Of a stretch of DNA of 64,000 bases, positions 19,235 to 56,735 are shown one piece after another (position 1 is the first letter of the stretch; each line of letters starts with the position of its first letter). Position numbers and translations under genes: made by a program. The stretch lies in the UHGV virus genome UHGV-0171999. One strand, given 5' to 3'. The notes beneath the pieces are model-generated. The model was given only the letters and a program-made list of their open reading frames with translations, was not told where the DNA came from and made no database searches. The stretch is from a virus.

Positions 19235-22375
<3,141 letters not shown>

Positions 22376-44606: not shown

Positions 44607-44679
44607 TGGGAATTAGCCAAGTTGGTAAGGCACTGGATTTTGATTCCAGGATGCAAAGGTTCGAGTCCTTTATTCCCAG
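44607..44679 (+). tRNA. tRNA-Gln (anticodon UUG), no encoded CCA
   Basis: Cloverleaf folded by hand: acceptor TGGGAAT/ATTCCCA, anticodon loop TTTTGAT, T-arm GGTTCGAGTCC. Confidence 0.8.
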
Positions 44680-44680
44680 C

Positions 44681-44767
44681 GCGAGAATGGTCAAATTGGT
44701 AAAGGCACAGCACTTAAAATGCTGCGGAATGATTTCCTTGTGGGTTCGAGTCCCACTTCTCGCACCA
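44681..44767 (+). tRNA. tRNA-Leu (anticodon UAA), long variable arm, CCA encoded
   Basis: Acceptor GCGAGAA/TTCTCGC, anticodon loop CTTAAAA, T-loop TTCGAGT, 3' ACCA. Confidence 0.8.
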
Positions 44768-44772
44768 AATTT

Positions 44773-44846
<74 letters not shown>

Positions 44847-44856
44847 ATTTAATTTA

Positions 44857-44931
44857 CTCCGTGTAGCTCAATGGCAGAGCGATCGCCTGTTAAGCGATTG
44901 GTTATAGGTTCGAATCCTATCACGTCCGCCA
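44857..44931 (+). tRNA. tRNA-like gene with anticodon GUU (Asn-type), acceptor stem only 4 of 7 bp paired
   Basis: D-arm GCTC-AATGGCA-GAGC, anticodon arm ATCGC-CTGTTAA-GCGAT, T-arm ATAGG-TTCGAAT-CCTAT, 3' GCCA; 5' CTCCGTG pairs poorly with 3' CACGTCC. Confidence 0.45.
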
Positions 44932-44935
44932 AATC

Positions 44936-45011
44936 CGAGGCATAGCTCAGAAGGAAGAGCAAGGACCTTCTAAGTCCTAGGTCGTAGGTTCGATCCCTAC
45001 TGCCTCGACCA
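44936..45011 (+). tRNA. tRNA-Arg (anticodon UCU), CCA encoded
   Basis: Acceptor CGAGGCA/TGCCTCG, anticodon loop CTTCTAA, T-loop TTCGATC. Confidence 0.8.
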
Positions 45012-51343: not shown

Positions 51344-51520
51344 TAAGGCCTATACTTAGGCCTATTTACATTCAAATAACATGGGAACAAGCTGGACTTC
51401 ATGATTCTGTGAGGGATTCCCGCCAACCTATAATAAGGTCGAGCCCAAGTGCGGTAATGGGTAAATACAGAAATGGACAATTCATGCGCCATGGAATGGC
51501 CCAAATTTAGAGAGAATAAA

Positions 51521-52060
51521 ATGAGAACATTTTTAACTGGTCCTTATCTATCCCTGATGAATGCTTTTACACACCATTCTGATGCTAGAGTAGAAGAAAT
51601 TTGTAAAAACGATTATATCCCACCATTTGAAGACTTACTTAAGCAGTATTGCACACTTCGACTAGATGGTGGACGTCAATCTGGTAAATCAACTGCAGTA
51701 ACTAATTTTGCCGCTAATTGGTTGTATGACGGTGGAACAGTTATTGTTCTTTCTAATACTTCAGCTTACGCTAAAATTTCTGCGGGCCACATTAAAAAAG
51801 AATTTTCTCGTTATTCTAGCGATGATATTCGATTCCGTTTATTTACTGATTCTGTCCGTAGTTTTGTTGGTAATAGAGGTAGCAAGTTCAGAGGTTTATC
51901 GCTTTCTCGAATTTTGTATATAATCGATGAGCCTGTTAAAGCTCCTGATATGGATAAAATTTACGATATTCATATTGAAACTGTGCAACACTGTTGCAAT
52001 AGTAAATGCTGCATTGGTGGTATTACTCGTCCACAGTTTTTCGTAATTGGGATGCAATGA
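51521..52060 (+). CDS. P-loop NTPase-like hypothetical protein (vs.8 position)
   Basis: 179 aa from ATG at 51521; Walker A-like GGRQSGKST; ORF-track start 51473 gives a longer form. Confidence 0.5.
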   Translation: MRTFLTGPYLSLMNAFTHHSDARVEEICKNDYIPPFEDLLKQYCTLRLDGGRQSGKSTAVTNFAANWLYDGGTVIVLSNTSAYAKISAGHIKKEFSRYSSDDIRFRLFTDSVRSFVGNRGSKFRGLSLSRILYIIDEPVKAPDMDKIYDIHIETVQHCCNSKCCIGGITRPQFFVIGMQ

Positions 52061-52386
52061 TGACAGATACGCAACTTTTCGAATATCTTTATTTTTCGCC
52101 AAAAACTATTAAAAATAAATTGGTGAATCATTTTGAAATTTTGGCAAATAACAACGTCTTGAGCGAATTTTATCCTAAGCAATACAAATTACAAAAAGGT
52201 GTATTCAAAGGATGCAGAGTGTTGTGCACCGCTCCTAATGCAAAGTTAATGAATAAAATTCCATATTTTACCATGGAATTTATTGATGGGCCTTTTAAAG
52301 GACTAATTACCCAAAGTTTAATGGCATATGATTCTGAGCCATTTTTAATTAAAGAACAATCTTGGATAAATTTATTTTCTAATTGA
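52057..52386 (+). CDS. hypothetical protein (vs.7 position)
   Basis: 109 aa; ATG overlaps upstream stop. Confidence 0.5.
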
Positions 52387-52394
52387 GAGGTTAT

Positions 52395-52757
52395 ATGAAA
52401 GCATATCAAATTCTTGAAGGCACGCATAAAGGTACTATTTATTTTGAAGACGGTATTCAAGCACGAATTATTGTATCTAAAACCTTTAAAGAGGACTCTT
52501 TTGTAGACCCAGAAATTTTCTACGGTTTGCATGCCCGTGAAATTGAAATTGAAACACAACCTACAGTTAAAATTGAGGGTGGTCAACACCTGAACGTTAA
52601 CGTTCTGCGTCGCGAAACTCTGGAAGATGCAGTTAAGCATCCGGAAAAATATCCGCAGCTGACCATCCGTGTATCCGGTTATGCAGTTCGCTTTAACTCT
52701 CTGACTCCGGAACAGCAGCGCGACGTTATTGCTCGTACCTTTACCGAGAGTTTGTAA
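52395..52757 (+). CDS. GrcA/YfiD-like autonomous glycyl radical cofactor protein
   Basis: 120 aa from ATG at 52395 with GAGG RBS; C-terminal glycyl-radical motif [31 protein letters not shown]; 3' half GC-rich with host-like codons. Confidence 0.8.
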
Positions 52758-52978
52758 TGGCAAAGATAATTATTGAAGGTTCTGAAGATGTGTTAAATGC
52801 TTTCGCCGAATGGTTTAGTAATTCAGGCGAACAACAATTTAACGAAGCGTGGAACATGGGTGATATTAATGGAATTTATCCTACGACAGAAATTTCTGTT
52901 CAAGGATATGGCATTCATGAGCCTATTCGTTTAGTTGAATATGATTTGGGAACAGGTGAGGAAGTAAAATATGATTGA
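52757..52978 (+). CDS. hypothetical protein (vs.5 position)
   Basis: 73 aa ORF, translationally coupled. Confidence 0.5.
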   Translation: MAKIIIEGSEDVLNAFAEWFSNSGEQQFNEAWNMGDINGIYPTTEISVQGYGIHEPIRLVEYDLGTGEEVKYD

Positions 52979-53517: not shown

Positions 53518-53547
53518 GTTTACTTTTCCTCTTGACTGTGGTATAAT
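53518..53547 (+). promoter_or_regulatory. T4-type early promoter of regB
   Basis: -35 GTTTAC at 53518-53523, 18 nt spacer, -10 TATAAT at 53542-53547; flanking TCCTCTT/AAGAGGA inverted repeat. Confidence 0.6.
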
Positions 53548-54589: not shown

Positions 54590-54929
54590 AATTTTGGTTT
54601 TATGTATAGGATTAATTTCATTTTCTGCTTATGCGTCAGCAGATATATCATATTCTGAAGTTAGAGAGTATGTAAACCGTACTGCCGCGGATTATTGTGG
54701 GAAAAATAAAGCATGCCAAGCTGAATTTGCACAGAAATTAATATATGCATATAAAGACGGAGAAAGAGATAAATCAAGCAGATACAAAAACGATACATTA
54801 TTAAAACGATATGCTAAAAAGTGGAATACCTTAGAATGTTCAGTTGCGGAGGAGAAAGATAAAGCCGCTTGTCATTCAATGGTTGACCGTTTGGTAGATT
54901 CTTATAATCGAGGATTGAGTACTAGATGA
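54582..54929 (+). CDS. vs: Vs, valyl-tRNA synthetase modifier-like protein
   Basis: 115 aa with signal-peptide-like N-terminus; position between regB/vs.1 and tk. Confidence 0.6.
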   Translation: MTKILVLCIGLISFSAYASADISYSEVREYVNRTAADYCGKNKACQAEFAQKLIYAYKDGERDKSSRYKNDTLLKRYAKKWNTLECSVAEEKDKAACHSMVDRLVDSYNRGLSTR

Positions 54930-55405
54930 TTGTAAAATATATCAAGGGCGATATTGTCGCCCTATTTCTTCAAGGTAATATTATTGCGCACGGGTGCAAT
55001 TGCTTCCACACAATGGGCTCTGGTGTAGCTGGTCAATTAGCAAGAGCCTATCCCAAAATTTTAGAAATAGATAAGACCACAACTGAATATGGTTCGCGTG
55101 AAAAACTCGGTGATATGTCTATTGTTTTTAGACATAAACCTAATGGTTTTGGTATATGCTATAACCTGTATACACAATACGAACCAGGTCCTAATCTTGA
55201 TTATGGTGCTTTAGTAAACTGCATGATAGAATTAAATCTACAGGCAGAAACCCTTTTGTTTAAACCAGTAATTTACATTCCACGCATAGGTTGTGGTATT
55301 GCTGGCGGTGATTGGGATAAGGTTTCTAAATTAATCGACATGTTTACTCCTGATATTGATTTAATAGTGGTGGATTATGAAAGTACATTACCCACATCCG
55401 TTTGA
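54926..55405 (+). CDS. macrodomain protein (OARD1/TARG1-like ADP-ribose processing fold)
   Basis: 159 aa; motifs IKGDIV, HGCNCFHTMGSGVAGQL, GCGIAGGDW resemble the macro ADP-ribose binding site. Confidence 0.65.
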   Translation: MIVKYIKGDIVALFLQGNIIAHGCNCFHTMGSGVAGQLARAYPKILEIDKTTTEYGSREKLGDMSIVFRHKPNGFGICYNLYTQYEPGPNLDYGALVNCMIELNLQAETLLFKPVIYIPRIGCGIAGGDWDKVSKLIDMFTPDIDLIVVDYESTLPTSV

Positions 55406-55589
55406 TCCTAAAAACAAAGCAGAAATTATTCGTCAATGGGAACGCATTTGCCGTACTAAATGCCCAATTAATAGTCCTCATGATGTAGATAAAGACTATA
55501 TTGGAACATTCGTTGAATATACCTTCATTGATAGGAAAGGTCGTAAACAACATGTAGAAGAATATTGCTTAAAGGTTACATGGTTATGA
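55377..55589 (+). CDS. hypothetical protein
   Basis: 70 aa ORF overlapping the macrodomain gene 3' end. Confidence 0.45.
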   Translation: MKVHYPHPFDPKNKAEIIRQWERICRTKCPINSPHDVDKDYIGTFVEYTFIDRKGRKQHVEEYCLKVTWL

Positions 55590-55792
55590 GCCAAACTAGT
55601 ATTCTTAAAAATGCCCATTGTGAAAAGTGTAAATGGCCTGTTGTTTTTGCTTTATGTAATGATGAAATGGCCTGTGATTTCGACTATTGGTGCTATTGTT
55701 CTAATAAAGGATGCATCAATCATAAAGGTGAAGGATTTTATTCAGGATTTTATCCTTATCCTGATTTCGTTAAAGAAGGTAAACCAAAATGA
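55586..55792 (+). CDS. Cys-rich small protein (putative zinc binding)
   Basis: 68 aa from ATG at 55586; CEKC...C...C.C...C pattern. Confidence 0.5.
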   Translation: MSQTSILKNAHCEKCKWPVVFALCNDEMACDFDYWCYCSNKGCINHKGEGFYSGFYPYPDFVKEGKPK

Positions 55793-55962
55793 ATAATTTT
55801 GAGTTACAATATGAAGTGTTACGTGAGCTTGATAATTTAATTGAACTCGCTGTTAATAAAGGTTTTGCCATTGGAATCGGTCAAAAAGATACTGACCATT
55901 TAACTACGGAAATATTTAAGCAAAAGCGAATTATTTTAAAACTCCTGGAAATTAATATATGA
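55789..55962 (+). CDS. hypothetical small protein (57 aa)
   Basis: ATG overlapping upstream stop; below the ORF-track size cutoff. Confidence 0.4.
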   Translation: MNNFELQYEVLRELDNLIELAVNKGFAIGIGQKDTDHLTTEIFKQKRIILKLLEINI

Positions 55963-56144
55963 GTCTAAGTAAAGAACAAAAAGATAAATTGTTTGAGCTT
56001 ATCCATGAACTTCTAGATGAGCATGCAGAAGCAAACACCTTTTATGATGAATACGGCCCGCTATCTCCCGAACAACAAGAAGAATTTGCTGACCGGTTTG
56101 ATAAGAAAGAAAACGAATTAATAGCTTATGTGAATACGCTTTAA
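55959..56144 (+). CDS. hypothetical acidic protein
   Basis: 61 aa ORF just upstream of tk. Confidence 0.5.
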   Translation: MSLSKEQKDKLFELIHELLDEHAEANTFYDEYGPLSPEQQEEFADRFDKKENELIAYVNTL

Positions 56145-56153
56145 GAAGGTGAT

Positions 56154-56735
56154 ATGGCGAGTTTAATTTTTACTTATGCAGCAATGAATGCTGGAAAATC
56201 TGCTTCTCTTTTGACTGCCGCACATAATTATAAAGAACGTGGGATGAGTGTATTAGTTCTTAAGCCTGCTATTGATACTCGCGATTCTGTCTGTGAAGTC
56301 GTTTCTCGCATTGGAATTAAGCAGGAAGCGAATATTATTACGGATGATATGGATATTTTTGAGTTCTATAAATGGGCTGAAGCACAAAAAGATATTCATT
56401 GCGTATTTGTAGATGAAGCTCAATTTTTAAAAACTGAACAGGTGCATCAATTAAGCCGAATTGTTGATACATATAATGTTCCTGTTATGGCTTATGGTCT
56501 AAGGACTGATTTCGCTGGAAAATTATTTGAAGGTTCTAAAGAACTTTTGGCGATTGCAGATAAACTTATTGAACTGAAGGCAGTTTGTCATTGCGGCAAA
56601 AAAGCGATTATGACAGCTCGATTAATGGAAGATGGAACACCAGTTAAAGAAGGTAATCAAATCTGTATTGGTGATGAAATTTATGTTTCTTTGTGTAGAA
56701 AACATTGGAACGAATTAACTAAAAAGCTCGGTTAG
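56154..56735 (+). CDS. tk: thymidine kinase
   Basis: 193 aa; P-loop AAMNAGKSASLL; C-terminal zinc ribbon CHCGKKA...C; length matches T4 Tk. Confidence 0.9.
   Translation: MASLIFTYAAMNAGKSASLLTAAHNYKERGMSVLVLKPAIDTRDSVCEVVSRIGIKQEANIITDDMDIFEFYKWAEAQKDIHCVFVDEAQFLKTEQVHQLSRIVDTYNVPVMAYGLRTDFAGKLFEGSKELLAIADKLIELKAVCHCGKKAIMTARLMEDGTPVKEGNQICIGDEIYVSLCRKHWNELTKKLG

Follow-up and report, generated by a model that had tools for sequence, protein, structure and literature searches.

What does a T4-like phage do with a macrodomain of its own, and to which branch of that fold does the protein belong? The question is raised by a 159-amino-acid open reading frame (ORF) at 54926-55405 in a 64,000-nucleotide stretch of the virus genome UHGV-0171999, the whole of which is here called the window. 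A preliminary description of this DNA had read the ORF as an OARD1/TARG1-like macrodomain that could reverse DarT-type host defences or edit the phage's own ADP-ribosylation targets. The genome is that of a T4-like phage (Tequatrovirus), and the ORF occupies the place of T4 tk.4, which has been published as the anti-DarT factor adfM and is judged by its authors to act probably by removing ADP-ribose from DNA. Hence, we favour, with a probability of about 0.75, the reading that the window gene is the Tequatrovirus tk.4/adfM counter-defence gene and that its product, a stand-alone macrodomain ADP-ribosyl glycohydrolase expressed early, acts with the help of residues Gln84 and Asn25 as an orphan eraser of the thymidine ADP-ribosylation that DarT2 places on phage single-stranded DNA. 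The catalytic position holds a glutamine instead of the lysine of TARG1 and DarG, and nucleotide identities along the locus show that the gene body has been exchanged between T-even genera.

Fold, class and genomic setting

The ORF is present with the coordinates and translation first proposed for it, as are the two motifs on which its assignment was based, HGCNCFHTMGSGVAGQL at amino acids 22-38 and GCGIAGGDW at amino acids 122-130. The match of the protein to the Pfam family PF01661 Macro reaches 34 bits, where the gathering cut-off is 22, and spans positions 2-117 of the 118-position model (E=3e-8); PHROG 335 is matched with E=2e-71. A profile built from 65 homologues and compared with the PDB retrieves BT1257 (8e-20), TARG1 (6e-17), SCO6735 (9e-16), Poa1p (7e-15), Mycobacterium tuberculosis (Mtb) DarG (5e-12) and Thermus aquaticus (Taq) DarG (9e-11), whereas viral and MacroD-type macrodomains come no closer than about E=1e-3 in the same search. 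The AlphaFold2 model is confident, with a mean predicted local distance difference test (pLDDT) score of 94.4 and a predicted template modelling (pTM) score of 0.89; disorder is limited to the last three residues. It shows the Macro-type fold, a three-layer alpha/beta/alpha arrangement with a mixed beta-sheet, and the nearest neighbours in structure and sequence are TARG1, DarG, SCO6735/BT1257 and Poa1p, not MacroD- or PARG-type proteins. Together, the Pfam, PHROG, PDB profile and AlphaFold2 results establish that the protein has a macrodomain fold and belongs to the ALC1/TARG1-like class. The TARG1/DarG-class macrodomain of the preliminary description is thus upheld.

The gene is widespread and conserved. 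We found 794 homologues of the window protein in a large protein collection. Of 50,697 phage records (GenBank), 2,863 contain a homologue, and 319 of these hold the window allele at an amino acid identity of at least 90%. Against relatives of the same allele class the ratio of nonsynonymous to synonymous substitution rates (dN/dS) is 0.04-0.15, and the ORF is therefore a gene under purifying selection.

Over the 10 kb surrounding the ORF, the window shares approximately 96% identity with many T4-like phages of Escherichia and Shigella, and the gene order is that of T4: vs.8 - vs.7 - vs.6 - vs.5 - vs.4 - vs.3 - regB - vs.1 - vs - [macrodomain ORF] - tk.3 - ... - tk - rI.1 - rI - rI.-1. The macrodomain gene lies between vs (PHROG 1256) and the tk.3 homologue (PHROG 2008), on the same strand as in T4 and with its start overlapping the vs stop, which makes it the positional orthologue of T4 tk.4. 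At its 3' end it shares 29 nucleotides with the tk.3 homologue, whose ATG is at 55377. The features of the gene and its upstream region are as follows.

54926-55405, + strand: macrodomain coding sequence, 159 amino acids, ATG start, positional orthologue of T4 tk.4/adfM (ORF list and synteny)
54926-54929, + strand: ATGA, shared by the stop of vs and the start of the macrodomain gene (read from the sequence; T4 is arranged alike)
54910-54914, + strand: GAGGA, possible Shine-Dalgarno sequence of the macrodomain gene (read from the sequence)
53519-53547, + strand: promoter-like site TTTACT-17-TATAAT with TG extension, upstream of regB (consensus scan; a consensus match only)

The ATGA overlap suggests that translation of vs and the macrodomain gene is coupled. 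The promoter-like site has the same relative position as a 'predicted early promoter' annotated in phage fPS-2; it is a probable early promoter of a regB-vs.1-vs-tk.4 unit, from which the macrodomain gene would be expressed early. Rfam and tRNA scans gave no RNA element near the macrodomain gene.

A glutamine at the catalytic position

The active site was placed by a profile alignment with TARG1 and by an L-INS-i alignment of both DarG macrodomains, TARG1, BT1257, T4 Tk.4, JS98 Tk.4 and PhiKZ gp104, in which the DarG sequences were taken from the PDB via a search with PhiKZ gp104. When the C-terminal 99 amino acids were searched singly against the PDB, the BT1257 loop gap fell elsewhere and the SCO6735 alignment did not include Q84; this result was not used. 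Three stretches of the gene carry the active site.

54989-55039, + strand: loop 1, amino acids 22-38 (HGCNCFHTMGSGVAGQL), with a conserved Asn25 and a G-S-G-V turn that binds ribose/phosphate (homologue alignment)
55175-55177, + strand: codon CAA for Gln84, at the position of the catalytic lysine of TARG1 (K84) and DarG (K80) (profile and L-INS-i alignments)
55280-55315, + strand: phosphate-binding loop, amino acids 119-130 (PRIGCGIAGGDW), with P119, G122, G124 and W130 invariant in the 65 homologues

In the L-INS-i alignment, position 84 is Gln in the window protein, T4 Tk.4, JS98 Tk.4 and BT1257 and Lys in TARG1, Mtb DarG, Taq DarG and PhiKZ gp104, so that the motif there reads LYTQ in the window protein as opposed to FPTK in both DarGs. 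Asn25 aligns with an Asn of both DarGs and of BT1257, where TARG1 has Ser, and the position of TARG1 Asp125 is Ala126 in the window protein in both the profile and the L-INS-i alignments. Q84 is invariant in the 65 diverse homologues, as are H22, G23, N25, C26, G33 and A35 of loop 1. Among 81 phage loci from IMG/VR, retrieved by patterns that contain neither Q84 nor N25, each of the two residues is present in 80.

A glutamine at this position has a biochemical precedent. Gln85 of SCO6735 is the equivalent of TARG1 Lys84 and DarG Lys80, its replacement (Q85A) abolishes activity, and N27S, at the counterpart of Asn25, nearly does so; the enzyme cleaves DarT-made thymidine-ADP-ribose on DNA and shields cells from DarT, and a water-mediated mechanism has been proposed (PMC9411070). 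The phosphate-binding loop of the window protein, PRIGCGIAGGDW, is nearly the same as those of SCO6735 (LPRIGCGLAGGTW) and BT1257 (MPRIGCGLAGGKW). The mobile loop differs: after Q84, BT1257 carries 6 residues that have no counterpart in the window protein, whose alignment with TARG1 and DarG is free of gaps at this point, and in 33 of the 81 phage homologues the loop is 3 residues longer. Of the features that mark the SCO6735/BT1257 subclass, the window protein hence has the Gln and the supporting conserved Asn and lacks the mobile loop longer by approximately 5 residues. On these alignments, the phage tk.4 family is a Gln-type enzyme, by prediction, with a loop of TARG1/DarG length.

Two closer identities were rejected. 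The protein is not TARG1 proper, whose Lys84/Asp125 dyad is replaced by Gln84/Ala126; with respect to mechanism, the label 'OARD1/TARG1-like' of the preliminary description consequently does not hold, and the protein groups with the Gln-type SCO6735/BT1257. Nor is it a DarG: the NCBIfam equivalog NF048014 scores 27.8 bits against a cut-off of 250 and is matched at model positions 2-142 of 338 only, and the 159-amino-acid protein has neither the catalytic Lys nor a C-terminal DarT-binding domain nor a darT neighbour.

Probable counter-defence role and allele exchange

When a T4 transposon library was grown on DarTG2-expressing E. coli (HIDEN-SEQ), tk.4 was the sole significant hit, and a clean tk.4 knockout made T4 sensitive to DarTG2; the gene was named adfM, for anti-DarT factor Macrodomain, and enzymatic removal of ADP-ribose from DNA by T4 AdfM was judged 'likely' by the authors (bioRxiv 10.1101/2025.11.20.689424). 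Other phage factors act comparably. AdfN, the NADAR protein encoded by T4 gene 30.3, has an analogous role against DarTG1 (PMC11825919, Nature Communications), and PhiKZ gp104, likewise named AdfM, strips ADP-ribose off a DarT2-modified TNTC oligonucleotide in vitro and rescues DarT2 toxicity (PMC13309987, Cell Reports). The proposal that a phage macrodomain reverses a DarT-type defence is therefore supported, by the transposon screen and knockout of the syntenic T4 orthologue, and was already known, while the suggested editing of the phage's own ADP-ribosylation targets found no support. The window gene and its role are in the literature and widely deposited, and the result chiefly confirms the soundness of a reading made from sequence only.

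Under the favoured explanation, the protein would be synthesized early from the regB-vs.1-vs-tk.4 transcription unit and would bind the ADP-ribose that host DarT2, of the DarTG2 defence, puts on thymidines of single-stranded phage DNA. Cleavage of the base-ribose bond would release free ADP-ribose and leave the DNA replicable again, with the protein serving as an orphan 'antitoxin'. The chemistry is probably of the SCO6735-like Gln type and water-mediated: Gln84, held by Asn25, would position the distal ribose, with the diphosphate held in the GSGV and GCGIAGG loops, unlike in the Lys-dependent catalysis of TARG1 and DarG. Provided that the window allele acts like that of T4 and that protection is enzymatic, both of which we infer, T4-like phages would survive a DNA-ADP-ribosylating defence by carrying their own eraser enzyme.

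Several points weigh against this explanation. The window protein differs from the experimentally tested T4 Tk.4 at 67 of 155 positions, and the T4 evidence is genetic only, the enzymatic step being put forward there as likely (bioRxiv 10.1101/2025.11.20.689424). Protection by binding of DarT2 is possible because catalytically dead SCO6735 also inhibits DarT (PMC9411070). The window protein lacks the 5-6 extra residues in the mobile loop to which the SCO6735 paper ties high DNA activity, and Poa1p, an ADP-ribose-1''-phosphate phosphatase, is just as near a neighbour in fold.

We compared the window with T4 (L001) and with phage JS98, a Dhakavirus (IMG/VR locus L004), by three-way sliding nucleotide identity. 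As far as approximately 54949 the window has 90-100% identity to T4 and, for the most part, 40-75% to JS98, whereas at 54950-55429 it is 37-87% identical to T4 and 80-97% identical to JS98. At 55430-55579 it is T4-like again, which places the back-switch, at approximately 55430, just inside tk.3. The tk.2/tk.1 region further downstream (55580-56160) is also non-T4. The segment, a hairpin at its 5' end and the amino acid identities of the genes along the locus are listed below.

54950-55429, + strand: recombinant segment, a JS98 (Dhakavirus)-type gene body in a T4-type backbone
54945-54963, + strand: 8-bp perfect hairpin (AGGGCGAT-ATT-GTCGCCCT) followed by a T-rich run, within codons 7-13 and at the 5' recombination breakpoint (scan for terminator-like sites)
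regB: window against T4 99%, JS98 against window 59%
vs.1: window against T4 99%, JS98 against window 67%
vs: window against T4 97%, JS98 against window 44%
Tk.4: window against T4 57%, JS98 against window 94%
tk.3: window against T4 93%, JS98 against window 74%
tk: window against T4 99.5%, JS98 against window 70%

Since Tk.4 is 57% identical to T4 amid neighbours at 93-99.5%, and 94% identical to JS98, the gene body was exchanged by recombination, and the counter-defence gene has been swapped between T-even genera independently of its flanks. The synonymous divergence (dS) between the window and JS98 alleles is approximately 0.66, and the exchange is therefore old or its donor unsampled. The hairpin also occurs in T4, and in phage fPS-2 it carries a terminator annotation; the codons it spans encode a conserved KGDIVAL motif. 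It may be a terminator or attenuator, an element of RNA stability, a hotspot of recombination or without a role, and it does not stand out from chance, given 2 terminator-like sites against the 1.9 expected from shuffled sequence and a local fold z of -1.16.

A wider interpretation, which we regard as tentative and on balance doubtful, is that the T-even adfM slot is an exchangeable cassette of deeply divergent alleles that move between genera independently of the backbone, and that the alleles differ in their targets, for example DarT2 variants through non-catalytic binding or, compare SCO6735, RNA uracil-ADP-ribose besides DNA thymidine-ADP-ribose. If so, AdfM of the T4/JS98 type would be a mechanistically distinct, Lys-independent counter-defence enzyme, convergent with the DarG-derived AdfM of PhiKZ.

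The exchange of alleles also bears on how the protein protects. That it would act mainly without catalysis, binding and blocking DarT2 as a decoy or inhibitor in the way AdfA and AdfB do for other DarTs, is improbable in our view. Dead SCO6735 Q85A does inhibit DarT in vitro, and to a greater degree than dead DarG or dead TARG1 (PMC9411070), and deeply divergent adfM alleles swapped between genera are the pattern expected if surfaces co-evolve with toxin variants, but the invariance of all ADP-ribose-binding and catalytic positions across hundreds of phage homologues argues for a retained enzymatic function, and the protein has no counterpart of the domain with which DarG binds DarT.

The RefSeq label on T4 tk.4, 'phosphatase; contains A1pp phosphatase motif', stands for a different reading, in which a Poa1p-like ADP-ribose-1''-phosphate phosphatase or an O-acetyl-ADP-ribose deacetylase clears small NAD-derived metabolites. 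This is quite improbable: the 'phosphatase' and 'A1pp' labels are homology transfer and not assays, the sole reported tk.4 phenotype is DarTG2-specific, and the signature of Q84, N25 and GCG[IL]AGGxW matches SCO6735/BT1257, which act on DNA-linked ADP-ribose. To our knowledge, no T4 pathway yields ADP-ribose-1''-phosphate, and the Pnk/Rnl1 tRNA repair leaves no 2'-phosphate junction.

Least probable of all is a main substrate other than DarT2-modified DNA, that is, ADP-ribose on RNA (for instance on uracil) or on proteins, among them those modified by the phage's Alt, ModA and ModB. These three T4 enzymes modify arginine, a linkage that no TARG1-class macrodomain known to us cleaves. SCO6735 does hydrolyse uracil-linked ADP-ribose on RNA, and more efficiently than DarG (PMC13036486), and it also removes protein mono-ADP-ribose, but T-even phages are still sensitive to CmdTAC, an RNA ADP-ribosyltransferase system (PMC11618068) whose adenine modification is described as irreversible, and for tk.4 there is direct genetic evidence in the DarTG2 phenotype. 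Such hydrolysis could exist alongside the DarT2-eraser role that we favour and need not replace it.

Several observations were made elsewhere in the window. Three small ORFs of 75, 57 and 61 amino acids lie in the tk.1/tk.2 region (55565-56144, + strand) and belong to PHROGs 2306, 3452 and 653, all of unknown function; the last alone resembles T4 Tk.2 (54%), and the first is Cys-rich (CEKC...CNDEMAC...CYCSNKGC), which suggests a zinc-binding protein. The vs.5 homologue (52757-52978, + strand) matches T4 in two frames, amino acids 1-17 at 52757-52807 and 17-58 at 52806-52931, as does the vs.8 homologue (51409-52060, + strand), with amino acids 1-32 at 51409-51504 and 26-219 at 51473-52057. Both are frameshift differences from T4, and the window reads vs.5 as a 73-amino-acid and vs.8 as a 195-amino-acid ORF. 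The vs.6 homologue (52383-52757, + strand) is an autonomous glycyl-radical cofactor (GrcA/YfiD-like) with a C-terminal RVSGYAVRF motif and 98% identity to T4 Vs.6, a known yet little-studied phage auxiliary gene. In a tRNA cluster at 44607-45011 (+ strand) ARAGORN calls Gln, Leu, Gly and Arg, and Rfam adds a fifth tRNA-like hit, absent from the ARAGORN calls, at 44860-44924 (model positions 4-67), which may be a tRNA that is degraded or atypical. T4 has eight tRNAs, and the cluster looks reduced by comparison.

Comparison with named systems

The closest named allele is that of JS98, which has 94% amino acid and approximately 87% nucleotide identity to the window gene over its whole length and shares its C-terminal tail. 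T4 Tk.4, or AdfM (NP_049723), is 57% identical, with 155 of 155 residues aligned, no gaps and E=2e-69. It shares the vs - tk.4 - tk.3 slot, an identical loop 1, the LYTQ motif and all family-invariant residues with the window protein, which is longer (159 compared with 155 amino acids) by 4 C-terminal residues that run into tk.3. The phosphate-binding loop follows the family consensus in the window (IGCGIAGGDW) and reads IGAGIGKGNW in T4.

Outside the phages, the best neighbours in both sequence and structure are the Gln-type, ALC1-class SCO6735 of Streptomyces coelicolor and BT1257 of Bacteroides thetaiotaomicron, at approximately 27-29% identity. They share with the window protein the Gln at the catalytic-Lys position, the conserved Asn and the PRIGCG[IL]AGGxW loop, and differ in being bacterial and in having the 5-6-residue longer mobile loop that defines their subclass, which the phage-encoded protein lacks. 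Human TARG1/OARD1 has the Lys84/Asp125 dyad and a Ser where the window protein has Gln84/Ala126 and Asn25. DarG of DarTG2 (Mtb, 5M3I; T. aquaticus, 5M31/5M3E) has a catalytic Lys (FPTK) and a DarT-binding domain at its C terminus and is encoded beside darT; the window protein has a Gln and neither of the other features. A tblastn search of plasmids with the window protein, seeking DarG operons, found stand-alone macro genes only, and none of the three plasmid loci inspected adjoins darT; two of them lie amid many small genes of unknown function. One such gene, 41% identical, lies at 19850-20308 of the 137-kb, non-mobilizable E. coli 'plasmid' CP057073.1 (L083) with only small hypothetical genes around it, and the 'plasmid' may in fact be a phage-plasmid or a phage genome classified wrongly.

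PhiKZ gp104 (L003:12518-13006) is a functional parallel, being likewise a stand-alone phage macrodomain of approximately 160 amino acids with a role in DarTG2 counter-defence. However, it is DarG-like, matching Mtb DarG with E=9e-25, and of the Lys type (FPTK), and pairwise BLASTP aligns it with the window protein in two short stretches only (approximately 26-27% identity, E=0.001). Because gp104 is DarG-like with a Lys and the T-even family has an invariant Gln, the two AdfM proteins are separate lineages; the T-even and chimallivirus 'AdfM' are independent recruitments from different branches of one macrodomain class, analogous and not orthologous. Beyond the papers found in our literature searches, the comparison thus adds that T-even AdfM uses, as predicted here, a Gln instead of the DarG/TARG1 Lys, which sets it apart from the lineage of PhiKZ AdfM, and that its gene body has been swapped between T-even genera, which bears on phage host range on DarTG2-carrying strains.
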